A stretch of 60,478 nucleotides of DNA, filler included, from Hausera hauseri (taxonomy: Eukaryota): the NCBI GenBank assembly GCA_046269625.1. It is 10 parts of 10 records of this genome, joined end to end, with 100 filler letters (N's around TTAATTAATTAA, not from the genome) between each part and the next. Parts side by side here need not be neighbours in the genome. Positions count along the whole stretch, not along the records: positions 47,692 to 55,108 come from JBJURY010015899.1; 9 more parts are not named here. The stretch is one strand, 5' to 3'. Of the stretch, positions 5,565 through 55,108 are shown in pieces. Made by a program: the position numbers and the translations under genes. The notes beneath the pieces were generated by a model that saw only the letters and a list, made by a program, of their open reading frames with translations, did no database searches and was not told where the DNA came from. Within the stretch, counting starts at the first letter, position 1; each line of letters starts with the position of its first letter.

Positions 5565-5609
5565 AATTATATTGATTCACGAAAACAAACATCAAAATAA
5601 TATTTGTGA

Positions 5610-10224: not shown

Positions 10225-10435
10225 GTAGTTTGCAATGTTCTGAAATCGTTTTTGAGTAAATCAGCACGTCATCTAGGTATATGACAACACCCGCATACAG
10301 TAAGTCTTCGAACAATGTATTCATCAGTTGCTGAAATGTTCCAGGGACCGTTGAAAGGCCAAATGGTACTCGGTTGGAACAATATTGTTGTGATTTCGTG
10401 CAAAAGGCTGTTTTTTCTTGGGAGTCTTCATCCAA
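10225..10435 (-). pseudogene. gypsy reverse transcriptase fragment
   Basis: KTAFCT..NRVPFGL..PGTFQQLM...IYLDDVLIYS. Confidence 0.9.
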
Positions 10436-12498: not shown

Positions 12499-12555
12499 CT
12501 GGCTGAACAATATCCAGAAAATCAGCCACAGTTTTGTCGTTTGGATTTGAGAAAA
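12499..12555. repeat. 57-bp perfect direct repeat, copy 1
   Basis: CTGGCTGAACAATATCCAGAAAATCAGCCACAGTTTTGTCGTTTGGATTTGAGAAAA, identical to 15371-15427. Confidence 0.97.
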
Positions 12556-13070: not shown

Positions 13071-13079
13071 GACCTGTCT

Positions 13080-15240: not shown

Positions 15241-15370
15241 TGAATACTCAAAAATAGCGGAATTATGCAATTATAAAACAATAGTTTTGTAAAGATCAGG
15301 GCGGTTATGATTTGTTGAAATACGACGAAAAAATGTTACCTTGAAATGTACTCTGAAACCAAAATGTTGG

Positions 15371-15427
15371 CTGGCTGAACAATATCCAGAAAATCAGCCA
15401 CAGTTTTGTCGTTTGGATTTGAGAAAA
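15371..15427. repeat. 57-bp perfect direct repeat, copy 2
   Basis: Identical to 12499-12555. Confidence 0.97.
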
Positions 15428-15468
15428 TTTTTGAGACAACTGGCTTTACCAGATTTGTAAATTTTCCA

Positions 15469-15568
15469 NNNNNNNNNNNNNNNNNNNNNNNNNNNNNNNN
15501 NNNNNNNNNNNNTTAATTAATTAANNNNNNNNNNNNNNNNNNNNNNNNNNNNNNNNNNNNNNNNNNNN
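15469..15568. other. Artificial contig linker
   Basis: 44N-TTAATTAATTAA-44N. Confidence 0.99.
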
Positions 15569-15679
15569 CAATGAACAATATACATTATTTATAAAACACA
15601 GATTCATCTGTCGGCACCGATTTCATCTGTGCGTGCGTGCGCGTATTTTATTCCAAACAACAATGTTCATACGTCCAAC

Positions 15680-18600
15680 TCTTATTTCGTCCCACCCACC
15701 TACTCTTATCATCACTGCATGATAAAGCGACTTTTTATTCATTACCGTATATAGCTGGTGCTCAATCGATCGGATGATTGTTTGTGACACAACAGCCTTT
15801 GATTGTCCTCCTCCGTCTTCTCCTTCTTCATAGACACGGCAATAATCATTGTGGTCGATTTCCGTCTGGGGCATCTGAACGCCTTTTGCGCGCATTTTCG
15901 GTCCGCAGTCTGTCAGGCCTTCGCTTTCATCCTTGAAGCAGCCGATTTTGTTCGTTATGGCGTTGCCATAAAGCGGATGATTCTGAGGGAAATCGGACGT
16001 GCCCAGTAGTCAATCTGCCATCATTTCCGGGAGCAGTTGGTCGCGATTGACGTTTTTCAGCTCAAGGAAAAAGCTGTCTGTGTCACCGGCAACGATACTG
16101 ATCTCACAACCGTCAAACATTTGCCGGTAATGTGCCAAGTCGCGATACTGGAACTCGTACATCCGCAACTTGTTTACTTGTCCGATATAGCTTGGTCGAT
16201 CCAGTACGACTTCTCTCTTTATCAGCACCGCATCCAATCCATCGACAATGTGCATTGACCGCCTGAACTGAGCCTTGCCGGTGTACGTAACCAGCCGCTT
16301 TTCATTGTTACATAGGCGCACATTGAGTCACTTTTTGAGCTTTTCTTCTGTTTTGCCGTAGAGAAAATTATTTTTTAACTAGTAGTAGTCTTTTTTGAAC
16401 TTTGTACAAGCTGCGACTCGCTTCACCGAATTTTCATCTATATACGCTTTGAATATGGGAGCCTGAGCAAATCGGATTGCACGATGCAGCTGTGTGACGC
16501 GTACACCGAACTGCATGTAGAAATGTAGCAGACGCCAATGGACCACGTAATTCAGCTTCGGTTCATTCGTCATAATCCCCTTCTTCACTTTTGAGGCTGG
16601 AGGGACATTGGTTAAATGGTGCGACTGGTAAATCGTCCAAAACGTCATGCAACTCATCTGGTATCTCGAGATCGACATTCATCAGGTATCCGACTAAGCC
16701 TGCTATGTTTGCTCGTGGTAGGTTGACCATTATGTCGTCAAAATATTGCCTGTGAACTACCCATTCGAATGAACTGTACGGCAAGGGTTGCGAAAGCACC
16801 CAGCCGTACAGGTTATTAATATCAATATACAGCATTGATGTGGTCTAGGTGGCGGCGGTAGCACTAACCTGATACTTGTTGACAAATGTCATGCCACCGC
16901 GAATACCAACATCAAACAGCCGATACATTTCCGGGTCTTGCAGCAGCTCAACTTCTCGATCCAGTGACATTACAGCTGACACCCAGCTCATTCCCGGTAT
17001 GGAATAAAAGTTGAGTAGCTCCAACCTATGTTCCGCCAACGTTTTTTCCTGAAAGGCCTGGAACATATTGGCTGATATGTACACGCCCTGTTTAAGATAC
17101 TGGAGTATGAACTCCAACAGGTTTTTACAGCCGAGCTCTGTCCAAGATTCCTGTGCTTTCTGATATTCAGCTTATGTGATGCCTGTCCATCGCGGTGGTA
17201 ATTCCTCTGCTGTCCGGAATCGCTCATATGATGTTGCAAAGTCATATGGAAATATGCCTTTTCTGCGTGCGATATGTGCGGGGAACTGCGTCAGCGCTAT
17301 CGAAACATCTGGCAAGGCATTTGCCAGCTTTGCCAATGATTCATTGAGACATTGCAATAAATCAAGGAAGCGTACCTGGAATCGGTTTACTCGTGCCGAC
17401 ATCGATAGGTATTTCTCCATTTTTGTTGGGATTATGGACAGTTTCCAGTGCGGAAAGCCATTAATTGCCAATTTGAGAATATGGTTATAGTAATAACATC
17501 GGAAATTATGAAAGATCACCGGCAGGAATAACCGCACGCGCTTTCATAAATTGCATGAATTGCATGCTGCTCCCGAGTATCGACCGGTGAAATGGTCGTG
17601 ATACGGTACGATCCGTTCCTGTGCATCAAACGGTATTATTCTGTGGCAGAGATAGCATTCATTGATGACAGCGAAAAGCAACGGTTTACATTCGTCTGCC
17701 CAAATCAGTGGCTTATTGCAATTGTTGCGATACCATGGCGCGATTTCCGTTTCTACTATGGTTTCCAACTGCTACAGGAAATCACGTACACAGTTCCAAA
17801 TATGGAAAACGTAATACTGCGGTTGCCCGGCGGCTTTTATTAGTACTAGCAACATACCGACGACAATTGGAACGTGGTTTTGATCGTATACATTGTGACG
17901 TGTTAGAATTGCTTCGATATCGGCATACACCACATACGCCGGACTGTCCGTTTTAGATCAATCACTGAATCTGAGCTCCGTTTTGACAGGCATGACGTAC
18001 ATTATTGTCCTTGATGCGTTTTGCCTGTATAACGTGACATGTTTCTCCTACGTTGTTTCGGATCTGAATCTATACAGGACACCATTTGCATTGTATTGGC
18101 TTTTTTATGAACTGGTCATACTCCCTGTTCAACAGTCTATCCAGATTTGTCATTGCCACGTAATGAAATTTTTCGGCCTGCTCCAACAGCAGTAAATTTT
18201 CCGAACATCAATTCAGGTTCCGACTACGATAAATTATGTCCACATGGGGGTTCTTATAAATTTCTTCGTCTTCTAGTATTTCAATTATTGTGTTGATTGA
18301 CAGCGTCAAATTGCGCCGTTCAAAAGCCGGAAAAGTTTTCAGTTTCATCGGCATACAGCATTCATAAAATTGCAATTCGACGAAATAATGCCTATACTGA
18401 TTCGAACGATTTGCATGATATTTGTTCACTTCGCTGTACTTCAATACAGCCAGAATACTGTACAGGAAACAGTATTTGTCGTCAGTATTTTGTACATTCA
18501 CTGCCGCCAGAGACTGCTTTAGAGATGCAGGTGTCGGTATGATTGACCGTCCAGACAAATATACCACGTCACCCGACTTTGTTATGATAAAGTCGAGTGT

Positions 18601-18990
18601 GACAATTTGTATAATTCGCCATCTACTACCCTTTTCGGTATAGTTGGCGATTTTCTCATCAAACTTTTCGCTTACATCGGCAATAAAATCTTTGGAATAC
18701 GGTACGGCTCGATGTAACAGACACCATTGTTTCCTGTCACCTTTAACATTTTCAAATTCTTCAAGTACGTAATATTGCACTTTGCAGTTTTTGCGTTTGA
18801 ATTTCTCTACCTCTAATTCAAACCGGCTGCGTACACTAGACGGAACATGCCTCAGCTCTTGTGTTGTTGTCCTCGACATGTTTACTTTCATGTCCACATC
18901 CGATTTGTTTAGATCGTGTGTGACAGAAATAAAAGGTTCCTGCTGCTGCTGCTGTTTAGTACTGTTTCGGAATAACTCGTCAAGACTTGT
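15680..18990 (-). pseudogene. Polinton/adintovirus-type protein-primed PolB, disrupted (second copy)
   Basis: VNVQNTDDKYCFLYSILA, HDHFTGRYSGAACNSCN, PVIFHN, RKGIFPYD, GIRGG, YIDINNLYG, KDYY, VAGDTDSFF, RAKGV; collinear with 6515-9870. Confidence 0.93.
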
Positions 18991-19092
18991 TGAGACCTGA
19001 CGTTTTATGCTTGTTGAGGGGATACTGGTTTTTCATGTCGCCATCACTATTTCCTTTTCGGAGCAAAGAAACTGGTTCAAGTTTTCCTTGTG

Positions 19093-19494
19093 CTAGTTAC
19101 AAAATTGTTCATAATTGATATCATCAACTATAGAACAACCGGGAAAAAGGTAGGCCCGTTTACCGTGCATCGTTATTGCGACATAGTACTGCTCCATTAC
19201 ACTATAGCAACCATCAATTTCATGCACTCCACTACTACAGTATCGCGGGTATGTAGGGCAATACAGATCCATTATCTTCTTTGCACGCGTAAACGGGCCA
19301 AAATGATGCTTGTGCATCGCATAAAAGTCGGGGTATGGACAAGGAGCCGAAATACAACCGCACCTTTGGCACAAATATGAGTCCGTGCCAACGGAGTAAT
19401 ATTTTGCCATCTGCTGATGGCACTGCTCCAGCTCCACATGTATGCGCGAAACGCAATATATGGGATAATTAGTACACTTCTGAATGGTAAACAA
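19093..19494 (-). CDS. Cys/His-rich putative Zn-binding protein of the pPolB element
   Basis: Open 133-aa frame with CQRC...HKH...YCPT; probably spliced at the 5' end (TTCAG acceptor before KCT; TTTAG before KCS in contig B). Confidence 0.7.
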   Translation of the reverse strand: MFTIQKCTNYPIYCVSRIHVELEQCHQQMAKYYSVGTDSYLCQRCGCISAPCPYPDFYAMHKHHFGPFTRAKKIMDLYCPTYPRYCSSGVHEIDGCYSVMEQYYVAITMHGKRAYLFPGCSIVDDINYEQFCN

Positions 19495-19633
19495 AATAAA
19501 ATAAATGTTTAATATTAAGTTATAAATACTATAAATTGAAATATGACAAATTATTTGTTGGTCTTGAGAAAAAAGGTTTCCTTACTCCCTTATAAACAAT
19601 TATTCTAAACACTGCAAAAACAACTAAATTCAC

Positions 19634-19679
19634 ATGGAACAGTTTATTGAAAGCGAGATTAAGAAATTGCCGATGACAT
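19634..19679 (+). CDS. 5' end of a homologue of 5610-5888 (contig edge)
   Basis: MEQFIESEIKKL vs MEDYIESEIRKL. Confidence 0.6.
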
Positions 19680-39399: not shown

Positions 39400-40466
39400 A
39401 CTACTGTACCCTAGTTCGTCTGTCATTGCAATTTTTTGGTTAGATCCATGCATACATTTCTGACATGTTTGACACAACACTTCAAATCATGTTTGAACAT
39501 AAATCTTGATGTTCTGCCGATTTCGCTGGTTGATTTTTTTTAAGTTCCGAGGCCCAATAATGACCCGACTTAACCAAGGAAATATCCATAAATTCAGTAG
39601 TTTCAGAAGTATAATCCAAAATGAGCTTATGAAGTTTACGCATGGTATTTGCAATGATCAAATAATTTGCTGAATTTTGATTCATAGTTTGACGAATGTA
39701 ATACAGGAGGATTTCCTTTATCTGCGCTGTCAGAGGATGACTGAATAAAATCCATCGAACCTCGAATGGGCTATTTTCACAACAATAATTTACAATTGCG
39801 GTGCAGCCAATATTTTCTGTTAGATATGATTATTCCTCCGTTCTTTCTTTAAAATCCCCGTTCAGAGGTGGATATTTGTAACTGCGAATGTCGTATAATT
39901 TTTCATGAAAATGCTCACATTTCTCGGAATCTAGCCACACCTCTTGCAGCTAGACGAAACCATCATCAATAACCGTATATGCCAAACGAGCTAAAAGCGA
40001 ACTACCATTCCGCGAATAATCAACTGCATCAAATGTTGGTTGACAGTATGCTGACTTCGATATTGCAGAATTAACTGAAACCCCCGAATTGCTATCATTT
40101 GATGGATCTAAATGCACTGGGTAATTTGTTTCGATGCATTTGTTGGAATATTGTGCCACAGCTACCAAAGAAATCCCGCTGAGCTCTGATCTTGGTTTCC
40201 AAATTATCTTCATTGACTTTAATGATACAGATTGTTCTTTTTTTATTGAGTATCATAGATTCGGTGTCAAGTTTCAACAAATCAGAGTATCTCTGAACTA
40301 GCTTTTCGTTACAGTGACTTAAGATTCGATCAATTACGTCCTTATTTAGATTGGACTTAGCAAATGAAGATGTGCTGGGTGATCGAAACAGTTTGTTTCG
40401 GGTTGTACGTGATAAACTGATTGTGCCATTTAAAAGTTTGAGATATTTGTCGCTTATCAGCATCAC
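39400..40466 (-). pseudogene. Frameshifted continuation of the ZFYVE26/spastizin-like segment
   Basis: PTFDAVDYSRNGSSLLARLA and HPLTAQIKEILLYYI...RKLHKLIL resemble spastizin ALAFLKSRSKLLATVA and WPLESCLEILAYCI...RKLAEL (from memory); split over several frames. Confidence 0.5.
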
Positions 40467-43400
40467 AAAACGATTTGTATTTCATCATAAAAGATAAGTT
40501 GCACTGTAACTCAGTGAGTAAACATTCTGGAGTATAAATATTTAATGGTGGACTTGATGCAGTTCCATTAATCATTCCAAAAATAAGTAGCGTCTGTAAC
40601 GTACTTCCATTAACCCTATATCGCTCCTCCAGTTGATTAGCAAGAAATGGTACTGAATTTTTCAAATCAAAATCGCAAAATGTTACATCTGGAATATTAA
40701 GGAAACATTGACTGACTTGATCAATACTAATGTTTCCCAAATTACCAATTTTGTAAGAGAATCCACATTTCAAAAGCTTAGAATTCAGACTCCGATATTT
40801 GAAAGTATTTTTTTCTTCCTGAACTGCTAAAATTAGCATATGGATAACCATAATATTGTGAAGATTTAAAAAGAAAGCTGCTTTCTCTTCATTGGAATTT
40901 AATAAATTCAAATCCACATGAACCAGATCCATTATATCTATTGCTGAAAATGTCTTCCAATCGTCTTCATAATAAACGGTGGATATTGCTTTACAGTTGA
41001 CCTCTAGAATTACCGATGAAGGTTTTACGTAGGCGTTATCGGGTTTTGATAAGTATTTGTAAGAGCTTTTAGTCGATTCTTTTGATTTAGAATTTCGCAA
41101 AGATTCTTTGGCTGAATCCTTTGTTCGTTGACTTGATCCACTAGATGTGGATGAAGCTGTGGAAAATGCTTGAAATGACGACTTTTGTGATTCCCGTTGA
41201 TCTATTATAAGCGTCGTATCGCCGTCATAAAATGGTAAATCTGACAGATTTGAAAGAGAAGAATTTTTCATTAATAATTTGATAATCGTTTTCAAACAAT
41301 TAGTGACAACTGTCAAAGGATTCAATGTAGTTTCAGAATCAATGACTTCAGCAGGAACATTGTATACAAAGTTTTGATAAAACCGATGAGATTCAGCAGA
41401 AGAATTATCAATTGTCTCAATGCAGCTGATATGCGGAAGGCAATTTCCAAGAATAACTTCGGAAACATTTAATCCCAATTCTAAACATAATTGTTGTATT
41501 TCAGTGCTTTTAGGACTAATTGATTTGAGTGGAGATGTTTTTAATAAACTAAATTCGTGACGTAATTGGGGTGCTGTACTATTTGATACATTTTTATGTT
41601 TTCTTAAGAATGTTACAAACGTTTCAAGATGCACATTTAACAAGTCCAAATACAAATGAAAATCCCGACGCAAATACCTGTACGGAACATTATCAATTTC
41701 AACAAGCACACAATTTTCCTTAATAAATTGTATGAGAATTAGAAGAGAATCCCAACGACTGTCAGAATCCGAATTGAGATCTCTATTATTAACACTCTCA
41801 GTAATATTCGAATTTAAAGACATGAAATTGAATCGAAGTTCATTGGACCACTTTTGGAAACTGACGGAATATTTCTGATCGACAATGGAATGTAGTTCCA
41901 AATCGGCATATGTTATGTGATCACTTTCGTCAATATTTGCAAAGCATTCCTTAAGCTGTTTAATGACAGGACTCAACCCAACGTATCGGTGGTATTGTAA
42001 CTGATCCGAAGATTTTAAAACCTGATCATTTAAATGGGGAACATCTAGCGACTGTAAATGTAAATCAATTTTTTTCAACATCTTTAAGAATTGCCATCTC
42101 GTTTTCGAACCGCAGATCATAATGTCAAATAGAAGACCAGCATCAAATAATATCTGGTCGGTATTTAATTTCGTTGCATTCAATTCTGAATTCTTGAGAG
42201 TTGGCCTGTCTTTCGAACTCAATGTCAATAGCCTGTTTGCAAACTCAGCTATTTCATTTTCCGTTTTCGACGCTAATTTTCGATTCAAATTTGAAATATC
42301 ACCCCAATTAAAATGACCGAACTCAGTTGATTTTGATTCAGTGTAATCGGTTTCAGAATTTTGCAGTACACCATCTGGTGGTTTAAGAGCACTAAGATTT
42401 TCTCTGAAGTTTTCAAAAGTGTCTCTATATTTGATTTCCGGTAACAAAACTTGCAATGATTCAATCGGTTTTGGTGAAACATTATTATTCACCACGGGTG
42501 GGGGGACACACGATGGAGCTAAAGATCTAAATACATTAACTCGAATAGCTTCACTGAGACCAAATCGGACGCAACCGATCATTTTATCCTTCATTGTAGG
42601 CATGTATAAATTAACTGTCTTTATGATAAAATCAATGAGAGTAATACTCACATTGGAATACTTGGTAAGGTTATGCATAATGGCCAAAATGGCAGGTTCA
42701 ATATCCATAATACAATCGTATTTGCTATCATAAAATAACCAGTCATAAATGAGCGCTAATTTACAATTGGCAACAACTGTTGATGACGAAGCCTGGACAA
42801 TTAACCAGGATATTGTCGCCCATTGAGAAATCAATGTAGACCCGATCATTTCGTTATCGGGATAAAAATAACGAATAATGTATCGAATCAAAAACGGTCG
42901 GAGATTTTGACTTTCCGGTGTAGAAAAGAATCTTTTGCTAATGAAATCCTGATATTTCTTGTATGGATTTGATGAACAGTGATGGACATTTCTCATCGTC
43001 CATAAAATCCATGCTTCCATATCATATTGTATTGATGTAGATATGATGTTTTTATTAGTTCCAATGCTAAATATATCACTGACATTGGTAAACTGGTTAG
43101 ACATCGATTCAATATTCTGGCAAATATCGTTCCAAAGACCTTTAAACTCTGGAATATTGGACACCTGTTGAATCATAAACATCATATCTCTCCCACCCGG
43201 TTTAAAACACTCATCAAAATTGTTTTTAATGATGTCCAAAACTAAATTGATTTCTTTTCGACATAAACGAGCAAGAGTATTGTTGGGAGTATGCGACAAT
43301 AATTTTCGGTCTTTAATAATTGGCTCTTTATATTCTTCGATGAGATTGAGCATGTTTTCTATTAGCCATAAATTTGATTGTGTTAAATCACCCGATATCA

Positions 43401-46400
43401 TCCGTTTAAATGCAGAACTAAATAAATTTTCAGCCCATGGAGTGTTTAATAAATCTATCAAAAGATTGAGAATATTTGATCGCACGTCATTAGTAATTCG
43501 ATTCCAATATTTGATTTCCGTTAACAAATCTTCAAAAAGATCATTGGTTGGTGTCGATTTAAAAGTTTGTACTATATCACCGGCTTTATTCTTGAACCCA
43601 TAAAGTAGTGTTTTCATGGTTAAATATTCAATAGGCTCGACAATCCATTGCATACACATAAAAAGGTGATGACTCATTCTTTTACTTTGAAATCGTTTAG
43701 CTTGAGTCTTCATATGGATATAAAGTTTATTTCGATCATTATTACTGCAATTATCACATTCACAGCTTTTTACCATACCACAATAGGTTTTATCAAAATG
43801 CTCGCCAAAATAACCAAGAACCTGAGATCGTCTACAGTCAATTGAATTGTCACAGAAAAAGGCCATTTCATAAAGTAACATGAAATTCTGACATTTAAAT
43901 TCAGGCGTACCGTTACTCATATTTAATAATGTTTTCCATGTTAATATGTCCGACCAATTGTAGTACAGCACACAAACAGCTGGAAGACCATCTCTTCCAG
44001 CACGTCCTGTTTCTTGATAATATCCTTCCAACGATTTAGGTACCGAATGGTGAATAACGAATCTCACGTCTGGTTTATCAATACCCATACCAAATGCAAT
44101 TGTAGCACAAACAATTTTACAATCGCGTTCGTTTAGCCACATTTTCTGAATTGTTTTCCGTTGAACATTAGTCATACCTGCATGGTACGGCTGGGATTTG
44201 AGACCAGCTTTTTCTAACTTGTCAGACACAATGTGACAGGCTTGACGACTCAGGCAATACACAATTCCACTCTGATCGTGGAATTTCGTTTTAATCAAAT
44301 GAATTATTTCTTTCATACAGTCACGAGATTTTTGATGAATCTCCCACCGTAAATTTGGTCTATTAAAACTTTGGATGAACCATTTGGCGTTTCTCATTTT
44401 CAATTGAACGATTATATCTTGTCGAACTTTTCTTGTAGCTGTGGCAGTCAAAGCCAAAATCGGAACGGTTGGAAATCGTTCACGTAGACATCGCAAGCTG
44501 CCGTGATCCGGCCTAAAATCATGACCCCACATACTGATACAATACGCTTCATCGATAACAAATCGATCGAGGAGATTTCGCTTGTACAGCGATTGAAAAA
44601 TTTGTAACACCCGTTGACAAGCTACAATCTTCTCTGGAGTAATATAAATCAATTTAATATCCATTTTGTCACTTTGGAGAATGTCTAGAACAGTATTCAC
44701 TTCCTTTGTAGATACATCTGAAGTTAAGGATTTCGCGTTAATGTCAAAACTCTGAAGTTTCATCAATTGATCGTGAACCAAGGACTTTAGAGGAGAAATT
44801 ACGACGGTGAGACCATCGGTTACAATACTTGGTAGTTGATAAAACAAAATTTTTCCACCACCAGTCGGCATCAAAACGAATGTATCGAACTTTAACAAAA
44901 CCGAATTGATTGCCGCCCGTTGATTTCGACGGAAATATTTTAAACCGAAAACCTCTCGAAATGCTTGCATCATTTTCGGAGTATGGGGAAAATCTTTAGA
45001 GAATTCACCAGTTTCACCATCGTTTGGATGTTCTTCTATTGAAGTAGCTGCATGATTGCACTGACTAACATTTGTCCATCGATTTTTGGTAATGGGCACA
45101 AACGTGTCACCATCCATATTAGCGCTTCGCTTTGTATTTTTCAATGAAATTTCTTCAAAGTCTTTTAACATGAACGAATTGAAAATAGAATCGTTTTCCC
45201 AACAGTCTTCATTTTTCAGTTTTGTTGACGTATTGGAAGAAAATGTATTGAACGTTTGTCCGAGAATGGCGATCAATGAATTATTCAAATCGAAATCGAA
45301 TGGTTGCGAATGACTCGTAAAAAACTGATCTAAAGTGTCCAAAATAATCAAATAATTCTGAACTGCTACGGAATTTTTCATGAACAGCATCCAACACATA
45401 TTGAAACTTAAAATTTTGAGAACTGTTTTGGAAAATCGATAGCCTTTTGTTTCTTCAAAATTATTGGAGCGAGAAGTACAACTGTAGAATCGTTTTTCCA
45501 AGCTAATAAGACTCATCAAAATTTTTGCCATTTTCTTAGACGTTGTTCTGTCTCCACGAACAAGATGTTGATAAATCATTGATTCCAAATACGCTGTGAC
45601 GGTAATAAGTAATTTTAAAACTTTCTCACTCCTCGGTTTTAGATCATTTAAGTACATCACTATTATAATATCGAGACTGCATCGAATAACCAATGGTTTT
45701 GGTACTTTTGATACCGTTTTACCAACCATTACTTTTAATAATCGTTTGTGGAATTTCGGATTCCTTAATATTGCCAGTCGCTGTGATCTTTCATTATGGA
45801 CCGAGAGAGATGGTTTGATGAATTTACGTAGCGCAATTGACAGAGATTTAATATGGAAGAACGAGGCATCGCATTTACCGTATTCAGATTCTTTAGCACA
45901 TGAATCGGGAGAACCAAGTGAAACCCCACTAGATTTTGAAGGCAACGCTCTCAATTTAATGTAAATTGCATAGTGTCTGGATCTGGACTTAATCAATTCT
46001 GTACTGGTCATTGGTAAAAATATCGGAGTTGTCGCTATTTCGTATTGAATGAAATCCAACACTTGATTCAGCCGATCAGCAAAATCTTCCTGTTCGACAA
46101 CGAGCAATTCCGGAATTGCAGGGTTGACAATCGAAATTGGACTATCTGTCTTGTCCAACAATTTACTTTGAGGTTTAAATGAATTAAGATCACATGGAAC
46201 AGAATCCCCAGAGTGATGGAGAGTCGTCGATTTCTTTTCATTGCGCTTATCCGGTACAATGGAGTAGAAGGCTAATTCAACATTTTCAGACATGAGACAC
46301 ATTCGATCCATGTCAGCAAACACCATTATGCTCAATAATGATTCCGGAAGTTCTTTATTTGAAAGAATTTTCATACCTAATTCAGCCATTGATTTTAAAA

Positions 46401-46656
46401 CACAATCCGGACTGGAAAAATTAGTTGATAACGAATATAAAAACAGTTCATTTCCAAAAGTGATGAATAAAAAATTAAAGGATTTATTCGAAACGGTTTT
46501 AACGATAGAAAGTATAACTCCGGAAGGTTGTGTTTCGTCGGCATTTGTCGTGCTAGACGATTCGGAACAATTTGACTCGAGGAGATCAATGTTTATCTGA
46601 CACCAATTTAGATGAAACGCAAATTTCTCATTATATTCCATCGGATAGACTAACAA
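40357..46656 (-). CDS. Intronless 2099-aa mosaic ORF: BIRC6-like, BLM-type RecQ core with RQC Zn finger, INTS3 N-terminal domain, ZFYVE26-like/DUF547
   Basis: RecQ: FREVFGLKYFRRNQ, MPTGGGK, DEAY, WGHDFRPD, ATIAFGMGIDKPDVR, YYQETGRAGRDG, CRR..YFGE..CDNC. INTS3: GRD..VSNIPEF, FSTPESQNLR, KLALIYDWLFYD, IMDIEPAIL. DUF547: EKAAFFLNLHN, GTASSPPL. BIRC6-like: ERSQRLAILRNPKFHKRLL, GDRTTSKKMAKIL. Confidence 0.88.
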   Translation of the reverse strand: MLVYPMEYNEKFAFHLNWCQINIDLLESNCSESSSTTNADETQPSGVILSIVKTVSNKSFNFLFITFGNELFLYSLSTNFSSPDCVLKSMAELGMKILSNKELPESLLSIMVFADMDRMCLMSENVELAFYSIVPDKRNEKKSTTLHHSGDSVPCDLNSFKPQSKLLDKTDSPISIVNPAIPELLVVEQEDFADRLNQVLDFIQYEIATTPIFLPMTSTELIKSRSRHYAIYIKLRALPSKSSGVSLGSPDSCAKESEYGKCDASFFHIKSLSIALRKFIKPSLSVHNERSQRLAILRNPKFHKRLLKVMVGKTVSKVPKPLVIRCSLDIIIVMYLNDLKPRSEKVLKLLITVTAYLESMIYQHLVRGDRTTSKKMAKILMSLISLEKRFYSCTSRSNNFEETKGYRFSKTVLKILSFNMCWMLFMKNSVAVQNYLIILDTLDQFFTSHSQPFDFDLNNSLIAILGQTFNTFSSNTSTKLKNEDCWENDSIFNSFMLKDFEEISLKNTKRSANMDGDTFVPITKNRWTNVSQCNHAATSIEEHPNDGETGEFSKDFPHTPKMMQAFREVFGLKYFRRNQRAAINSVLLKFDTFVLMPTGGGKILFYQLPSIVTDGLTVVISPLKSLVHDQLMKLQSFDINAKSLTSDVSTKEVNTVLDILQSDKMDIKLIYITPEKIVACQRVLQIFQSLYKRNLLDRFVIDEAYCISMWGHDFRPDHGSLRCLRERFPTVPILALTATATRKVRQDIIVQLKMRNAKWFIQSFNRPNLRWEIHQKSRDCMKEIIHLIKTKFHDQSGIVYCLSRQACHIVSDKLEKAGLKSQPYHAGMTNVQRKTIQKMWLNERDCKIVCATIAFGMGIDKPDVRFVIHHSVPKSLEGYYQETGRAGRDGLPAVCVLYYNWSDILTWKTLLNMSNGTPEFKCQNFMLLYEMAFFCDNSIDCRRSQVLGYFGEHFDKTYCGMVKSCECDNCSNNDRNKLYIHMKTQAKRFQSKRMSHHLFMCMQWIVEPIEYLTMKTLLYGFKNKAGDIVQTFKSTPTNDLFEDLLTEIKYWNRITNDVRSNILNLLIDLLNTPWAENLFSSAFKRMISGDLTQSNLWLIENMLNLIEEYKEPIIKDRKLLSHTPNNTLARLCRKEINLVLDIIKNNFDECFKPGGRDMMFMIQQVSNIPEFKGLWNDICQNIESMSNQFTNVSDIFSIGTNKNIISTSIQYDMEAWILWTMRNVHHCSSNPYKKYQDFISKRFFSTPESQNLRPFLIRYIIRYFYPDNEMIGSTLISQWATISWLIVQASSSTVVANCKLALIYDWLFYDSKYDCIMDIEPAILAIMHNLTKYSNVSITLIDFIIKTVNLYMPTMKDKMIGCVRFGLSEAIRVNVFRSLAPSCVPPPVVNNNVSPKPIESLQVLLPEIKYRDTFENFRENLSALKPPDGVLQNSETDYTESKSTEFGHFNWGDISNLNRKLASKTENEIAEFANRLLTLSSKDRPTLKNSELNATKLNTDQILFDAGLLFDIMICGSKTRWQFLKMLKKIDLHLQSLDVPHLNDQVLKSSDQLQYHRYVGLSPVIKQLKECFANIDESDHITYADLELHSIVDQKYSVSFQKWSNELRFNFMSLNSNITESVNNRDLNSDSDSRWDSLLILIQFIKENCVLVEIDNVPYRYLRRDFHLYLDLLNVHLETFVTFLRKHKNVSNSTAPQLRHEFSLLKTSPLKSISPKSTEIQQLCLELGLNVSEVILGNCLPHISCIETIDNSSAESHRFYQNFVYNVPAEVIDSETTLNPLTVVTNCLKTIIKLLMKNSSLSNLSDLPFYDGDTTLIIDQRESQKSSFQAFSTASSTSSGSSQRTKDSAKESLRNSKSKESTKSSYKYLSKPDNAYVKPSSVILEVNCKAISTVYYEDDWKTFSAIDIMDLVHVDLNLLNSNEEKAAFFLNLHNIMVIHMLILAVQEEKNTFKYRSLNSKLLKCGFSYKIGNLGNISIDQVSQCFLNIPDVTFCDFDLKNSVPFLANQLEERYRVNGSTLQTLLIFGMINGTASSPPLNIYTPECLLTELQCNLSFMMKYKSFCDADKRQISQTFKWHNQFITYNPKQTVSITQHIFIC

Positions 46657-47691: not shown

Positions 47692-48148
47692 ATGAATTGA
47701 ATTATGTCGAGTTGGAGAATTACAGGCAACAGTTTAATTGTAAAATTAATGTAATTGCTGATGACACAGATAGTTTTTTCTCGAGTGCCGTGGTGTCAAT
47801 TTGCGTAACCAACAATTACCAGCAATGATAACTAATGAGCAGCTTGATACTTCCAATTGTGATATTAACGACCCCTTTTACTCTTCACGTTTCGCAACAG
47901 TGATAGGAAAATTCAAAGATGAGAGTAAGGGGTCAGTAGAGTATAAAGAGGGTATTTTCCTACGACCAAAGTCTTATGCCCTGAAAACACAGTCTAAATC
48001 AATTATAAAATGTAAAGGTGTAAATCTGAGACAGACAGATTTACAGTATGAGAACTACATTAAGGCCTATGAAACTGGATGTTGGACAATGGTTAACCAG
48101 GAAAGAATTGGCACAAAGCACACTATCATTCTCGTGATCATTGATTAA
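47692..48148 (+). pseudogene. C-terminal fragment of protein-primed PolB (same family as contigs B and D)
   Basis: INVIADDTDSFF (frameshift) LDTSN..IGKFKDES..FLRPKSY..KCKGV; homology stops after GTKH (~48120), before the terminal DDKR-type motif. Confidence 0.88.
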
Positions 48149-48316
48149 TGAAACCTCAGGAGGAGGTATATTTATGCTCAAAGCTTGAGGTAGAGCCGTA
48201 CTGTGATAAACATTGTCATTTACATTCTGTATCTAAAATTACAATAATATTAGAACAAAATAATAACTAAAAACCTCATTAAAATTCTGGGCCAATCTCC
48301 GAAAATCCACTCTGTT

Positions 48317-49525
48317 TTATTCCAAAAAATCATCCCGACTACCGTCAGTTCGGTACAACATAAAATCGCCGAGATCATATATGAGGCACCGCTTCAAACA
48401 CGCTTCCTTCTGGCTCAAATCCATATGCCTCGGCCAAAAATTTAGTTGGCTATTATAAGTGAAGATGACAGGAACAGCCGAAGGCACAACTACAGATTTG
48501 TACAATCTCCTAATTGAACGATTGTCATTAGGGTGATTACACTGGATGATAGACAGAAAGATGTCAGGGCACACGTCACCAAAGCCGACGTCATCGAAGA
48601 CCAACAAGTCAAACTCCCCACTCCACTCAGAAGGAGTATCGTGTAAGAAGTGCAAAACAAGAGGATTGGTTCCCTGCGAGATGGCATAAAAAGTTTTGCC
48701 TATATTAGATGAACTGAAAATAAGGGCAGAATTGACACCTCTATTTAAATCAAAGGCAATGGGCGGAAGTGTAAATTGAAGTTCCCTATTGACAGACACT
48801 TTAGGCCTAAATTTGGCACTTACGTACGATGTTAGCATTTTATTCCTGGTGACAAATTCAGCCCTGTCACCTTCCTTCATTATGGCCATGGCATCATTAA
48901 AAGTTGGGGCCTCATCAAACATGCGATACAAAGCCTTTCGGCTCGTATTGTCCTTCGCAATGTCGATGGGAGGTACCCCAAATTCCATTACTAAAGAGTT
49001 TAACTTCACTTCCTTGCAGTGGTATTTGTATACAGCAAATACGTCATTCCTAAATGGTATAACATACTGCAAATCGAAAACGGACTTAAATCTACTAAGG
49101 CGCATCGGGTTTCTTATATAAAATAAAAGATGTAGGTGCCTAAATCCACTAGGACTGACGTCCTCTACAATTTTACAGTAAGCGTGATACGTTATTAATT
49201 TACGTAATAAACAACAAACATAAGTTACAACATCAGAATTTAATGGGAAATCAATAACACACATAAAATGCCTAAAAGTGGCACCAACTGGTGGTAAAAC
49301 TAACTCACCAATGGAAGACGGAAAGCGTGTTTGAAGTGCATGTGCAATTTCGTTATCGGCATTTGGGAAAAGTAGAACATAGCTGTCAACGGCATTTTGA
49401 ATAGTGAAGTTGCGACCGTAACCCTGCATGAAATAAATATATTAAACAAAATAACAAATACTAACGATTTGATTCCTTTCAGCCCTGGAAACCAAGACAT
49501 TTTCGTTATTTGAAGATTCAGACAT
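48317..49525 (-). CDS. rep: CRESS-DNA-virus-type Rep (HUH endonuclease + SF3 helicase), spliced, 388 aa
   Basis: Motif I-like FMCVIDFP, motif II RHLHLLF, motif III YKYHCKE, Walker A SSSNIGKT, Walker B LLVFDD, motif C IFTYN, Arg-finger-like ACLKR. Exon 1 49466-49525 (MSESSNNENVLVSRAERNQI), 42-nt GT-AG intron 49424-49465, joins in frame; AATAAA overlaps the stop. Confidence 0.88.
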
Positions 49526-49533
49526 GATTTTTA

Positions 49534-49581
49534 ATATGAGGCCATGTATAAATTACAATAAATTTATACATGATCTCATAT
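49534..49581. repeat. 21-bp inverted repeat (2 mismatches, 6-nt loop) just upstream of the Rep ATG
   Basis: ATATGAGGCCATGTATAAATT-acaata-AATTTATACATGATCTCATAT. Confidence 0.85.
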
Positions 49582-49681
49582 CATTGGAATATGTCAACAC
49601 AATAAACAACACAAATAATAAATGCAAATCAAATAAATTAAACAAATATACATACCTAATCTGAAACTTTCTTCACTTCTT

Positions 49682-49759
49682 TGAGTTATGAGCACCAATA
49701 GGAATAAGTTACTATATACATACTATATGTACTACATTCCTATTGGTTCTCATTACTCA
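49682..49759. promoter_or_regulatory. 24-bp inverted repeat carrying two opposed CCAAT boxes (divergent promoter or origin hairpin)
   Basis: TGAGTTATGAGCACCAATAGGAAT ... ATTCCTATTGGTTCTCATTACTCA with inner TACATA-cta-TATGTA; ACCAATAGGAAT recurs at ~51339. Confidence 0.7.
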
Positions 49760-49968
49760 TTACTTTTCTAAAGATTACAAGAAGATAAAGGAATTACACA
49801 TAAAGAAACCAATTTATATACTTACATTTGTAAGTAGTATATAAAAATAATTATTAAAATATGAGTAATAAGGCCTAGATGCCTTGTTTAAAACGAAAAT
49901 TAAAACAAGAAGCACATGACACAACTGCAAACATCATTTTTAAGAAATTCCAAGAATAAAAAGGATAA

Positions 49969-50238
49969 ATGGTAAATATTTATAATTTTTCATAAATTAA
50001 TATATTTAAGGCACCATTTGCCGATCAAAACAGATTCTATAAAATTCTTCTAAAGAAAATCATGGAAATTAACAAAGATATAAAATTAAAGAAAAAAGAA
50101 ATTAAAAAACTTAATTCCGAACTACTACAAAACGACAATTGCGCGCTTAGCCACAAATTCTGGCTCAATAGAATGAGACTACTGAATGCCCGCCTAGACA
50201 AAATACAAGATATACAATGGGATAAAGAAAAAATTTAA
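49969..50238 (+). CDS. Small basic coiled-coil protein, spliced (76 aa), missed by the ORF track
   Basis: ATG 49969-49971, 39-nt GT-AG intron 49972-50010, then open APFADQNRFYKILLKKIMEINKDIKLKKKE...WDKEKI*; AATAAA downstream. Confidence 0.5.
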
Positions 50239-50587
50239 ATAATCGACAATTTGTATGATTGTGATATTAATCCAATGTTTGAAAATCAATATTCTGAAAT
50301 TTTATATATTGAATAAATATTTGTACGCGTTCATTTTCTTCCTTTTAAATCTATATAAAAAATTTCTTTTAAATAAAAAAATGAGCACAATAAAAAAGTT
50401 AAATTAAAAAAATGTACAAAAAAGTACTATAAGCGTATAAAAAATCCCACCCACACCTACCCAATATACGGCTGCATACGGTGGGAATCAAGTAATAAAA
50501 CACACAAACTTCTTTATACAAAAATATGTAAACATTGAAGAACCAATAGACAAAACCAATTTTATTATTAAAAAATATATACAATTG

Positions 50588-50944
50588 TTATCCTGCTGCA
50601 AGTTTTCCATTATTAACATATTCATCCACAACAGCAATTTGCGTATACAAATTATTCAGATCAATATATCGATTTCTTCTGCATTTGACTAAAACAATCT
50701 GCTTCTCACCATCAATTCCAACATCGTATATCTGTATGTCCCTTTTCCAATCTGCATTGATGAAATTGAAATACATATTATCAGTCCATTGAAGAACACA
50801 TGGAACTGATAAAGTCAGCATTATTGTGTCATGGGACAAATATGAGAAATCCAAAAGTGTTAAGTAGTATGTATTTGGTGTTTGCATTTTCAGTCTTATA
50901 CAATATAAGTTACGTATATATAGTTTTACAGTGTATGTATGCAT
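50588..50944 (-). CDS. Hypothetical beta-rich protein
   Basis: Intact ORF (likely start MQTPN at ~50887) followed by AATAAA. Confidence 0.55.
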   Translation of the reverse strand: MHTYTVKLYIRNLYCIRLKMQTPNTYYLTLLDFSYLSHDTIMLTLSVPCVLQWTDNMYFNFINADWKRDIQIYDVGIDGEKQIVLVKCRRNRYIDLNNLYTQIAVVDEYVNNGKLAAG

Positions 50945-50993
50945 CCAATAAAAATCATTGAAGAATATAATACATATTTATTTATATAACATC

Positions 50994-51275
50994 TCAGTCT
51001 TCGTCTGATTCTTCATCCCTCGCATCCATCCATACTGACCACCATGCACTGTGGTATTCATCTCCCTCGATGGTATCCAATGTCGATATCCGACAGCGCA
51101 TAAAACGCTTGTCTCCATAGAAAACGTCTGCAAAGTTCGTACTTCTTCTGCATACTGGACATGACTTGTTAATGTTAATCCACTGAATGAAACAATTGTA
51201 GCAGTGTCGATGAATGCAACTGGCCATACACGCATTGAATGACGTACAAGTTTCCAAACAAATAGAGCAGTTCAT
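50994..51275 (-). CDS. Small C3HC4 RING-finger protein (putative E3 ligase) with acidic tail
   Basis: CSIC-x-CIHRHCYNC..W....SCPVCR; TATATAAAG ~30 nt upstream; AATAAA after the stop. Confidence 0.88.
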   Translation of the reverse strand: MNCSICLETCTSFNACMASCIHRHCYNCFIQWININKSCPVCRRSTNFADVFYGDKRFMRCRISTLDTIEGDEYHSAWWSVWMDARDEESDED

Positions 51276-51409
51276 CTTTTAACACTGAGTTTAAGTTTTC
51301 TACACTTTATATAGTATTTCTCATACTAATAAGAATCAACCAATAGGAATTAAGACACACACATGAAAAGTATATATACCGTATTAGTTTGTCATAATTT
51401 GAAAACAAA

Positions 51410-51748
51410 ATGATTGAAGATATTGTACAAGGTTCAAATCAAGGGCGATTTAATTTCCCAGTAATTGATAGTGACATAGCATATGGGTTTCCGCTCAAAT
51501 TACAAAGATGGACAATGACTGACAATGGCATAAGAATCAACATTAGTCCAAACAGTATTGAAACAAATGTACGTTATCAGATAGCTCTGGATAAAAGATT
51601 TTTCAGTGGAATGAAACTATTGTACGCGTATTATGATGATGAACAATTCATTATCAGTTTGGAAACAAACGAAGTCGAACAATGCGACAAGTTGGATAGC
51701 AAAATTGGATCAAGAGTGGGTTGTTTAAGAGTTATTGCTATAATTTAG
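51410..51748 (+). CDS. Hypothetical beta-rich protein
   Basis: Intact 112-aa ORF with CCAAT and TATA upstream, A-rich start context and AATAAA right after the stop. Confidence 0.65.
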   Translation: MIEDIVQGSNQGRFNFPVIDSDIAYGFPLKLQRWTMTDNGIRINISPNSIETNVRYQIALDKRFFSGMKLLYAYYDDEQFIISLETNEVEQCDKLDSKIGSRVGCLRVIAII

Positions 51749-52076
51749 TTTAATAAATGTTTGTGTCAAATTTGTGTGCTTATTTTTACAAAAGCTTTTA
51801 GGTGAAAATATTATATGGATATTTATTAAATCAAATATTATGGATAATTATTATGTCGACAAAATATAAAGTACAATTTTTCAAATATTACAATCATATT
51901 TCAACACACACATTACAAAGGCAGTAAGTAAAATGAAAAACGTATAAATAAAACAACACCAATAAGTCAAATGAAAACATGATAAAGCAAAACATGATAA
52001 GACAAAAACACAAGACAAATCAATAATTTTGGCCCTGAAGAGGACCGTTTAACATTCTCATCATCACTTCTTTTAT

Positions 52077-53128
52077 CTACTTATAATATTTATTTATAAT
52101 TTTACATTTTTTGTAAATAATCCGCTCCATAGGCTTCTCCACCTCATCTGTCTGCATTTCAGCTTCCACAAAATTTTCACTGCATTGCACCTCCTTATCT
52201 TCACTTTCGTTCCTAACTGTCTGATTTCCTATATCTTTCACTTTCAATGAAATGCCCACTGATTTATTTACCATCTGGACATTGACACATTGGACTTCCT
52301 TTTCTGCTGTGTTACACTTTTTGCGCAACTGTTGCAATGACCGGCCTTGACTTTCAATCACTCGCTGGTAATGAGCGATTTGTTCCTTTAAATTTCGAAT
52401 TTCCTTCATTTCCTCGGTCATTTCTACCTTCTCGGATGTACGCTGCGGTTTTGTTGTGATTTCAAACCGCTTGTTCAAATTTTTATGTAGTTTGGGGTCA
52501 GCAATGTTGTCCAGTTGCATTTCAACAATTTCATGACCTTCCTTCATTTTGAGACTGATTCTCCTCCTTTTCCGATTTTCATATTCGTGCTGCCATTTTG
52601 TCCGCAGCTTTTCAGTGACTGCTTTACGCTCCTGTGTACAGTCAGCCGCATCAAGTGCCCGTTTCAACTTTTCTTGCCTCTGTTTGGTCACTCGAGGCTC
52701 TCCAGTTTCCTTCAATAAAACGGGCTTCTTCTTTTCTATTACAAAATCATCATCTGAATTGAATAATTCTTCCGACTGTGTTACTGCAATATCTTCGCGC
52801 AGTTGTCGGATAATATCAGTTTTGTTGGCATTTACACTGGATGATTTGTCCATGTCAACATTGTCTGAAATGTAAAATTAACTTTGTAAAAGTTGAAAAA
52901 TTTCTTACCAATTATCTGAGCAATATCCACCAAATCTTGAGTGAGATGTTCTGTAACATTTTCGGCCGGGTTGTAAATTTGGTATTGATCATTTTCGGTT
53001 GTTGTTGGACAATACTGCAGCATTTTTTTCTTTTCCGCCTCATGTGCAGCGACAATTAGTTGCTGCTTGATTTCTTTCCCGATTGGTGCTGCTTTCATGA
53101 AATTTGAAAACTCCTTTGAACAATTCAT
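52077..53128 (-). CDS. Charged coiled-coil protein, spliced (335 aa)
   Basis: ORFs 52832-53128 and 52077-52853 join in frame via a 44-nt intron 52865-52908 (GTAAGA...TTTCAG), giving QIIDNVDMDKSS; KRRR NLS-like; KEVQC/DIGNQT/EAEMQT resemble LC8-binding QT motifs. Confidence 0.75.
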
Positions 53129-53189
53129 TGTAGTTTTGTCGATTGTAATAATGACAAAATAATGACAAACACTTCTTTATATACTCTAA

Positions 53190-53255
53190 TTAATATACCG
53201 CAACGTAAAATGTGTCATATTGACAAATGAAATATTTTACGTTGCGGTATATTAA
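53190..53255. repeat. Perfect 22-bp inverted repeat with a hairpin inside the loop
   Basis: TTAATATACCGCAACGTAAAAT (53190-53211) / ATTTTACGTTGCGGTATATTAA (53234-53255); loop contains TGTCA-tat-TGACA. Confidence 0.95.
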
Positions 53256-53294
53256 ATACGTTGTTCAACAAAATGTTACATTATGACAACACTT

Positions 53295-53475
53295 TTTCTG
53301 CTTATTTGTGTGTGTGTGTGTACAAATGTAATACTGTCATTTGTGTTAACAATATATTAAATATGTGTTTGTACAAATGTATTATCGTCATTTGTGTTCA
53401 CAATATATATTTAATGTGTGTACAAATGTATTATTGTCATTTATATATTAAATGTGTGTACAAATGTAACATTAT
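53295..53475. repeat. Iterated TGTACAAATGTA-containing repeats (4 copies, ~38-50-bp spacing)
   Basis: TGTACAAATGTA at ~53299, 53370, 53419 and 53457, mostly followed by ...GTCATTT. Confidence 0.8.
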
Positions 53476-53577
53476 TTATTGTAATAGTTTTGTCACCTTG
53501 TGTATATTTGTTCCTTCATTTTTATTGGCTGATTGAATTAAAAAATAACTATATATATTCAGATTATTACAAATTAA

Positions 53578-54204
53578 ATGAAAATGTATAGTTACATATT
53601 TCTTTTGTGCACATTTGCACAAACGGTTTTATTATCAAACAATACAGCAAACAGTACAGTGAACAATACAGCAAACAGTACACTGAACAGTACACTGAAC
53701 GAAACACTGAACAGTATAGTGAACGAAATAGTGAACAATACAGTTGCAGACGAAGTCATTTTATTTGATGAGAAATTTCTGGATTATATATATATCGATG
53801 AATACAGATATATGACCGATAATATTATGATACGATTAACCGAAAGATTGCCGAAAAATGCAGTTTTAATGTTAGAAATTGTATATAGAAATAAATCACT
53901 AAAGAAAAGTTGTTGTATTGTTACAGACAGTGATGTTAGAGCAGTGCGTAGGAAAACATTTCCTAATCAAGAATATATGTTACATTTATCTATTCATCGC
54001 AATTATGGAGATTTTTGGGTACGAACAGCAATAATCAGTCGTCAATTGTCCAAACAAGAAAGTAAACAGATATCAAATCAACAAATTGACATATGGAAAC
54101 TTGAAGACATCGGATTGATATTCGCAATGGTCTTGGCATTCTTTGGATTCATTTATATAATAACTGTTTTTATTATATGTTTTAAGAAACGTTTGTTGGT
54201 GTAA
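53578..54204 (+). CDS. Type I membrane glycoprotein
   Basis: Signal peptide MYSYIFLLCTFAQTVLLS; seven N-X-T sequons encoded by 12-nt repeats; C-terminal TM IGLIFAMVLAFFGFIYIITVFIICF then KKR; AATAAA at the stop. Confidence 0.8.
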   Translation: MKMYSYIFLLCTFAQTVLLSNNTANSTVNNTANSTLNSTLNETLNSIVNEIVNNTVADEVILFDEKFLDYIYIDEYRYMTDNIMIRLTERLPKNAVLMLEIVYRNKSLKKSCCIVTDSDVRAVRRKTFPNQEYMLHLSIHRNYGDFWVRTAIISRQLSKQESKQISNQQIDIWKLEDIGLIFAMVLAFFGFIYIITVFIICFKKRLLV

Positions 54205-55108
54205 TAAATATTTTACTACGTCTTATTTAAAATAAATATAAATAATTAATGTACATTTCATCAGTGTTTTATCACAGAACCAGAAAACTGAATGTAAGGA
54301 GTAAACCTAGAACGGCATAAGTACAAGAAGGCAGAACAAGGATACGTAAAGTAAAATTTTTTAAATCAGCAGCGGAAGAAACTGTTCAATAGGATGACAA
54401 GCAAGCACTTATTAAGGAAAACAAAAGTCAAGTATGATTTAACTTTATTTGGATCAGTTACACCCTGTGCTGTGCCATTCACTAGTGTTAAAGCAGGAAA
54501 CGGGGCTCCCCTAAGGGGTCCGACACTTGAATTGCACATCAATTTTATTGTGCACCTGAAACATGGGATCAAGTACTGCCTGTCACCCATATGGTGTGCA
54601 GGCTAAGTCCAGGCTTTTGTGAATAGAATGGATCTTTCACCTGAAAGAGTTATTCAGTAGCAGTAGCCTAAGACAATCTCCTTTGCTCAAGTTCAGAAAG
54701 GAAGTGGCAGAACCCTGTAAGTTTCTAACTGGGAGCAATACTTGAAGCAGCCTTGATTGGCCCACCAGTCCTTGCTCTTAGTTTCACATCATAAACTATG
54801 ACAAAATATATCATATCACTTCATAATATTTCTAATGTTAACAGAACAAGTTTCGTTGTCAGATTTAAAAGCTGCATAGACTAATGATAAATTATTTTTG
54901 CCTGAAACAACTTTCCATTCTAGGGCCATCTCATGTATCTGTGAACAAAACATAAAGAAATAAATTATAGTAATTACAGAATTTTTAATTTTGAGGGAAA
55001 AATAGGTTATTTCAAGAAACCGCAAGGGGGTCGGGTGGGGGAAATAACCATGCCTCTATAATGGTTTAAAGTATTAATCAGAAGGCCAAGTGATAATAAA
55101 TACATAGA

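Follow-up and report, generated by a model that had tools for sequence, protein, structure and literature searches.

A divergent CRESS-type Rep gene beside a decayed Polinton-type polymerase fragment in a contig of Hausera hauseri

We analysed a window of 60,478 nucleotides, filler included, from the Hausera hauseri assembly GCA_046269625.1, composed of ten unplaced contigs separated by 100-base linkers (N44-TTAATTAATTAA-N44), in which a single 7.4-kb contig (JBJURY010015899.1; positions 47692-55108, 33% GC) carries the C-terminal part of a protein-primed family B DNA polymerase (pPolB), an open reading frame (ORF) for a replication initiator (Rep) like those of DNA viruses with circular, Rep-encoding, single-stranded genomes (CRESS viruses), and a block of small genes. 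The presence of all these parts on one contig had been reported by a sequence-only reading, and we confirm it; that reading went on to propose an undescribed lineage using both replicases, or one in which Rep replaced a decaying pPolB. On balance, and with only a little more confidence than doubt, we favour a different explanation, namely that a Polinton (Maverick/adintovirus-type) family exists in many integrated copies and that the contig is a decayed one of these, into whose accessory region a low-copy auxiliary CRESS-type Rep was captured. This would likely make it a single event of gene capture, not a new lineage of viruses; a working lineage with both pPolB and Rep is not supported. The features on which the argument turns are the following.

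47694..48121, plus strand: C-terminal fragment of a Polinton/adintovirus-type pPolB, recognised from 22 homologues; the contig begins inside the gene
48115..48318, no strand: spacer of low depth, as seen in public run X1 (see below), that separates the cut pPolB from the Rep stop
48317..49429, minus strand: Rep, an open 370-aa, highly divergent HUH (Y1) plus superfamily 3 (SF3) helicase protein of the CRESS type, from phmmer, Atlas, AlphaFold and Foldseek
49465-49424, minus strand: predicted 42-nt GT-AG intron of Rep
49525-49466, minus strand: predicted first exon of Rep, 20 codons, in frame with the ORF

Searches with the Rep ORF gave no match in Pfam, in a word-index protein search, among phages or, by sequence, in the PDB, and phmmer returned 162 matches, 17 of them at E up to 1e-10 and the best at E 4e-17 with 29% identity; the best matches (P0001-P0010) sit on contigs of 1.3-3.9 kb. 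The Atlas score of Rep to CRESS Rep clusters is 0.98, the AlphaFold model has a predicted local distance difference test (pLDDT) value of 78.6 (37.7 for a single-sequence prediction), and the top Foldseek matches of the model are a vientovirus Rep, the Rep68 protein of adeno-associated virus and CRESS Reps. These three approaches concur in a model-based assignment of the protein as an HUH plus SF3 Rep. Residues H98 (within HLH), Y136 (YHCK), G244-K245, D279-D280, N326 and R347 fall on invariant or near-invariant alignment columns, and HUH motifs II and III are present together with the SF3 Walker A, Walker B, motif C and arginine finger. The earlier description of a complete Rep with three rolling-circle motifs and an SF3 helicase thus holds for these elements, but motif I could be aligned only loosely and the first position of Walker A is non-canonical, being Ser in place of the Gly found in at least 90% of the aligned rows.

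In a quick tree of 43 rows (32 phmmer matches and 10 loci, with P0052 and several other long rows excluded), Rep is sister to an 18-row clade that holds the match P0003, with a Shimodaira-Hasegawa-like approximate likelihood ratio test (SH-aLRT) support of 97. Where visible, at its N and C termini, P0003 is identical to the CressRep of Parvo3867 as given in supplementary entries of Buck et al. (PMC11071296); according to these entries, Parvo3867 is among several parvoviruses that carry an auxiliary CressRep in addition to NS1 and VP. The identity of Rep to P0003 is just 26%, and because the same clade holds a protein named as the Rep of a bird-associated CRESS virus, it is not exclusively parvoviral. 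As judged from these alignments, Rep would fall together with a clade in which the auxiliary CressReps of some parvoviruses are also found; its branch is long, and the placement is new here.

The pPolB fragment is distributed over two frames (47694-47780 and 47774-48121), with the frame break at about 47774-47780. The longer frame shares 38-54% identity with the 22 homologues, 19 of which carry precomputed PF03175 and/or PF02945 matches. The match ends at about 48106-48142, mostly at 48115-48121, which leaves the product some 35-50 residues short; the D[DN]KR..[YF]GH tail kept in 20 of the 22 homologues is missing from all three frames here, in agreement with the earlier statement that the gene is frameshifted and cut near 48120. 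For comparison, 66 distinct pPolB loci were gathered from one metagenome scan and two viral scans. Two of these (L049, with an rve plus chromodomain integrase and an A32 ATPase, and L059, with homologues of both) are, by gene content, ordinary and complete-looking Polintons. Given that the homologues are of the Polinton type and that relatives carry Polinton genes, the pPolB of the contig is best described as an ordinary Polinton-type polymerase, which its sequence predicts to be dead in this copy.

Linkage between the two replicases was not found elsewhere. A Rep profile, which recovers the window Rep at 4e-49 as a positive control, detected Rep in 0/66 pPolB loci, of which just 16 have at least 1.5 kb downstream, 6 of those being close relatives; conversely, a pPolB profile detected pPolB in none of 39 Rep loci, all distant CRESS viruses of 2-7 kb. 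Weak matches of the Rep profile in L049, L059, L082 and L089 were not counted, as they cover the P-loop only and the L049 ORF is the A32 ATPase. The window itself contains two further, multiply broken pPolB copies, at 5565-10124 (plus strand, with the polymerase at about 6600-9900) and 15569-19679 (minus strand, at about 15700-19200), which belong to other subfamilies (30-53% to P0163); both contigs end just past the polymerase, with no Rep or small-gene match beside either copy. The linkage that the sequence-only reading anticipated between other copies of pPolB, Rep and these neighbours did not materialise in these loci. An ORF of 420-450 aa is common to four of the pPolB loci; we tentatively take it to be the major capsid protein, and Pfam and PDB gave it no name, as was also the case for the L049 ORFs that we presume to encode capsid and protease. 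In L041 and L043, the stretch separating the end of pPolB from the block with this ORF holds small unrelated ORFs, in the same position as the small genes of our contig, which fits an accessory region downstream of the polymerase. By eye, the products of L049:11333-11806, L049:13477-13887 and L059:10321-10779 resemble a TATA-binding protein and, in L049, a ubiquitin-conjugating enzyme.

Two public runs, both available as contigs with the library type not stated, match the stretch: X1, with 0.70 of the words, and X2, with 0.25. No RNA run came up among them, which carries no information on expression. X1 may be the source sample and does not count as independent support. In terms of summed depth, which differs from copy number, X1 reaches 16,382 and 4,910 in the pPolB bins, 117-17,437 across the small-gene block, 2.6-50 across the Rep block and 1.6-3.3 in the right flank, so that the pPolB and small genes exceed Rep by two to three orders of magnitude. 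Variant sites are represented by 30-70 contigs on pPolB, by many on the small genes and by a single contig on five Rep sites; X2 covers pPolB, likewise with many variant contigs, and the small genes, with a depth of 0-1.4 over Rep. The suggestion that Rep replaced a decaying pPolB is therefore half sustained: Rep does lie beside a decaying pPolB, but with Rep rare and pPolB abundant, nothing shows a replacement in the family.

Sequence spanning the junction at 48120-48317, another expectation of the earlier reading, was not present among the X1 contigs listed. The sole X1 contig on the Rep side, over 48115-48318, aligns by its letters 144-347 only, and its preceding 143 letters are not on this pPolB; bin 48188-48435 has a depth of 10.0, to which this contig and the Rep contig contribute 9.9. 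Because of these 143 unlike letters and the lack of other depth in the bin, X1 appears to lack the assembled junction. This allele may have lost the 143 letters by deletion, or they may be part of another element or the sign of a misjoin. Between the X1 and window versions of Rep there are five differing sites, four of them non-synonymous and one within Walker A. In addition, one X1 contig has 37 other letters in place of 49460-49841, a segment holding the predicted first exon as well as the two hairpins on the Rep side; X1 thus seems to have this region upstream of Rep in two versions.

Downstream of the polymerase and Rep, the contig carries these small genes and repeats.

50062..50238, plus strand: 58-aa lysine-rich ORF, a doubtful gene with no family and no CCAAT nearby
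50588..50887, minus strand: 99-aa ORF, reaching 118 aa if read from the first ATG at 50944, without a recognised family
50994..51275, minus strand: 93-aa RING-finger protein (PF13639, 8.5e-7)
51410..51748, plus strand: 112-aa ORF, no confident relative (best Atlas score 0.83)
52077..53128, minus strand: 98-aa and 258-aa ORFs, predicted to form a single 335-aa coiled-coil gene through a 44-nt GT-AG intron (52908-52865)
53578..54204, plus strand: predicted type I membrane glycoprotein of 208 aa; its C-terminal part includes a hydrophobic stretch, and it has 8 sequons
49534..49581, no strand: hairpin with a TATA box on its arm (z -5.5)
49682..49759, no strand: hairpin with CCAAT boxes on both arms (z -7.9)
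53168..53277, no strand: long hairpin between divergent genes (z -7.1)
53313..53482, no strand: tandem repeat of about 51 nt

The RING gene, the product of which is likely an E3 ligase, and the predicted membrane glycoprotein agree with what had been named from sequence beforehand. The coiled-coil-like 335-aa product arises only via the predicted intron; a 1-base indel of other copies lies within this intron. In the glycoprotein ORF, a 12-nt repeat yields the N-x-S/T sequons, and no homologue was found for its product, the word-index protein search included. Viral contigs scanned for the 258-aa and 112-aa ORFs and for the long hairpin yielded no locus. A loose scan of the contig yielded eight candidate GT-AG introns of 36-60 nt, two of which join frames, those of the 335-aa gene and of Rep.

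The TATA/CCAAT promoters noted earlier are also borne out. The predicted Rep start has a TATA box at -43 and a CCAAT box at -62, and across Rep and the RING, 99-aa, 112-aa and 208-aa genes the boxes lie at -26 to -43 and -54 to -70, respectively. A TATA box at -20..-60 combined with a CCAAT box at -50..-80 precedes 10 of the 304 ATGs of the contig, compared with 2/2028 in the other nine contigs and a shuffle expectation with a mean of 0.6% and a maximum of 3.4%. As the spacing windows were set after the data had been seen, this pattern gives modest support to the possibility that Rep is expressed like its neighbours. A 13-nt CCAAT word common to the promoters of Rep and of the RING and 112-aa genes was rejected as evidence, 41 of 1000 shuffles matching it.

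The hairpins proved real, the three listed folding better than all 200 shuffles and four other tested stretches not doing so. The one at 49534-49581 is likely a palindromic promoter, and the long hairpin at 53168-53277 has the highest depth of the contig and is a point at which joints and loose ends cluster in other copies. X1 joints at 51437-53149 (opposite strands, depth 197) and 53270-50567 show that the cassettes are rearranged in other copies. Two intergenic bins, 51908-52155 and 53148-53395, reach X1 depths of 10,016 and 17,437, far above those of the adjoining genes, with many loose ends; these are short modules reused in many contexts. None of the loops of the three strong hairpins contains the nonanucleotide typical of an origin, for which five NANTATTAC matches occur elsewhere in the contig, one of them (53562) touching a weak AT-rich inverted repeat far from Rep. 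TAATATTAG at 48245 was set aside, as the folding there is not that of a significant hairpin (z -1.2). Searches of the contig against Rfam gave just four matches, all sub-threshold.

The other nine contigs of the window consist of unrelated DNA, including retrotransposon and transposon pieces (by eye), host-type genes and the decayed pPolB copies. Judging from the host-type genes and transposons, the host is probably an animal. In host-type DNA at 40357-46641 (minus strand), an open 2094-aa ORF is an odd triple fusion of a RecQ helicase core (residues 572-965), an Integrator subunit 3 N-terminal domain (1043-1376) and DUF547 (1916-2047). At 13942-15270 (minus strand), an unbroken frame of 442 codons resembles, by eye, a RING/TRAF-type protein with a coiled coil.

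Under the explanation that we favour, intact members of the family would replicate by protein priming and integrate by means of an RVE integrase, as L049 and L059 are equipped to do. The small genes would be promoter-bearing accessory cassettes of the Polinton, shuffled among its copies, and Rep would have entered the accessory slot just downstream of the polymerase by nuclear recombination, in one or few copies. The donor may have been a small DNA virus of the clade that also supplied the auxiliary Reps of parvoviruses. Once in place, Rep could be driven by a CCAAT/TATA promoter in the style of the element, its transcript containing a short intron, and a later deletion or recombination at about 48115 might have taken off the tail of pPolB, although the order of these events is conjectural. 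This copy would be inert without a helper, and the two replicases would form no working pair here.

Several observations weigh against this explanation. A quick tree of 93 rows leaves Rep unplaced on a long branch, and the length of its branch is 2.4-3.4; the 159 bits that a profile of the 18-row clade gives Rep (122 and 89 for other clade profiles) come from a profile made from matches picked for likeness to Rep, and are hence not independent. The contig has no integrase, ATPase, protease or capsid gene detectable by tblastn with the L043, L049 and L059 genes, and no terminal repeat; it begins inside pPolB, with the left end unassembled, and the rest of the element is missing. No homologues of the small genes were found in the 66 pPolB loci, where the promoter spacing is also rare (3/469 ATGs), so that the small genes are linked to the Polinton by position and shared high depth only. 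The X1 contigs listed include none that connects the Rep block with pPolB on one side or, at about 50400, with the small genes on the other. The differences between the two Rep versions match the expectation under drift, yet five are too few to show it. Finally, over 48684-48931, the helicase part of Rep, X1 depth rises up to about 40 above the main Rep contig and X2 shows 1.4, which suggests further Rep-like copies.

Some of these observations would be accounted for if Rep belonged to a separate element, either a rolling-circle element without a capsid and mobilised by Rep, or what is left of a virus replicating through Rep, which landed in, or recombined with, the Polinton pPolB and thereby cut it; the rare Rep copy would then be autonomous, and the abundant hairpin-bearing cassettes its non-autonomous cargo. 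Rep resembles the small genes in its promoter spacing and predicted 42-nt intron, this spacing is missing in the two other pPolB contigs as well as being rare in Polinton relatives, the cassettes rearrange at hairpins, and pPolB is cut where the low-depth block starts. Rare autonomous and commoner non-autonomous copies are also described for Replitrons in passages of Craig 2023 (PMC10288648). We nevertheless consider such an element rather unlikely, given the absence of a nonanucleotide from the strong hairpin loops, the lack of significance of the shared CCAAT word and the failure to find a capsid gene in the contig; moreover, cassettes with a glycoprotein and a RING protein would look viral rather than transposon-like. 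For no ORF of the contig did Pfam or PHROGs give a capsid family above threshold, the sequence-only reading having recognised no capsid either, and among the 10 contig ORFs scanned there was no Parvo_NS1 or capsid Pfam match. Alternatively, the junction near 48115 might be an assembly chimera or a chimeric read, with the Rep block unrelated to this pPolB. A short unplaced contig that begins inside a high-copy repeat invites this suspicion, as does the X1 contig that runs into 143 letters unlike the window with almost no other coverage. The overlap between pPolB-like and X1-matching sequence is, however, just about 4-7 bases, which would be short for a misjoin and typical of a real deletion, while the 143 letters could be the sequence deleted in this allele and X1 may be another individual; a chimera therefore seems to us quite improbable.

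Slightly less probable again is the existence of a stable and undescribed lineage whose replicon includes both pPolB and an intact HUH/SF3 Rep, this contig then being a decayed copy of it. The open and very divergent Rep (29% at best) with its element-style expression signals would fit such a lineage, as would the extra Rep-like depth in X1 with traces in X2, the two apparent versions of the upstream region, and the retention of the same Rep clade as a second replicase in several parvoviruses in the entries of Buck et al. (PMC11071296). Against it stand the complete lack of linkage among the pPolB and Rep loci, the far lower depth of Rep than of pPolB in X1 and its near absence from X2, the cut of pPolB at the junction and the four non-synonymous differences among five in Rep; furthermore, among the CressRep entries listed in file 2 of Buck et al. 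(PMC11071296), none of 22 is from an adintovirus or meldvirus. Since other pPolB copies lack these neighbours and the X1 contig on the Rep side leaves this pPolB, the proposal of a lineage keeping both replicases together is not supported. A bolder version of the capture, which we regard as unlikely, would be that a Polinton sub-lineage recruited the parvovirus-type auxiliary Rep as a regular spliced and promoter-matched gene, bringing protein-primed and rolling-circle machinery together. If so, Rep could amplify or excise copies with a dead pPolB, and the sub-lineage would be a living model of the pPolB plus HUH-Rep intermediate proposed for the origin of bidnaviruses; should several selected Rep-bearing copies exist, switching between rolling-circle and protein-primed replication would become testable in one host genome.

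In keeping with the suggestion that the combination fits no published element, we found no element with both a pPolB and a CRESS-type Rep in the full-text literature, with subscription papers and the supplements and figures of two 2026 preprints outside the scope of the search. One preprint, in the portion available, describes degraded endogenous polisuviruses that have a second replicase, degraded endogenous elements combining two classes of replicase and, in Gulliviroviridae, circovirus-like nickases (bioRxiv 10.64898/2026.10.13.758929), and the other, likewise in part, HUH proteins in mriyavirus-like groups and common replicase switches (bioRxiv 10.64898/2026.06.19.733378). The contig shares with Polintons, Mavericks and Alpha-PolB adintoviruses, as characterised in sections of Starrett et al. 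2021 (PMC8502044), a PF03175-type pPolB, a multi-copy degraded endogenous state and variable accessory genes, but it has no integrase, ATPase, protease, capsid or terminal inverted repeat (starting, as it does, inside pPolB), its pPolB is dead, and it carries a CRESS-type Rep, for which we found no report in that group. Compared with Cressdnaviricota (unclassified CRESS viruses and cruciviruses), Rep has the same architecture of Y1 HUH, oligomerisation and SF3 domains, whereas the contig offers neither a capsid nor a nonanucleotide in a strong hairpin loop, is known from contigs alone and surrounds Rep with RNA polymerase II-type accessory genes. Replitrons and Helitrons are likewise genome-resident eukaryotic HUH proteins with hairpins nearby, but in passages of Craig 2023 (PMC10288648) Replitrons (Y1) have no helicase and Helitrons combine Y2 with an SF1 helicase, unlike the Y1 plus SF3 protein found here.

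The closest parallels are captures of replicases by other DNA viruses. Avipoxviruses, as presented in part of Kinsella et al. 2023 (PMC10193959), are double-stranded DNA viruses that captured a cressdnavirus Rep (apvRep), often with altered motifs; apvRep is fixed across the genus under purifying selection, whereas Rep here is rare and shows no sign of selection. In the Parvo3071-group parvoviruses, a CRESS-type Rep serves as the second replicase of another DNA virus, according to the available entries of Buck et al. 2024 (PMC11071296), where the CressRep entries listed (at least 22) are all from adomaviruses or parvoviruses; the partner in our contig is a pPolB instead of NS1 and VP, the identity of Rep to P0003 is low, as given above, and the locus is integrated and decayed. 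The Bidnaviridae and bidnaparvoviruses have a pPolB of Polinton origin next to an SF3 helicase (Krupovic and Koonin 2014, PMC4061559; PMC8502044, both in excerpt); in the former source, the bidnavirus helicase is parvoviral, its endonuclease is lost and the capsid is a jelly roll, whereas here the HUH domain is kept, Rep is of the CRESS type and no capsid is seen. The contig stands for one decayed locus only, whose junction is unverified, and what distinguishes it is the probable capture of a replicase by a Polinton-type element from an unusual and specific donor clade. Even as a one-off, it would extend to a Polinton-type context a Rep clade so far seen as a parvovirus passenger, and it would show, at a stage before the loss of the HUH domain, the kind of gene traffic from which the bidnaviruses are thought to have arisen.

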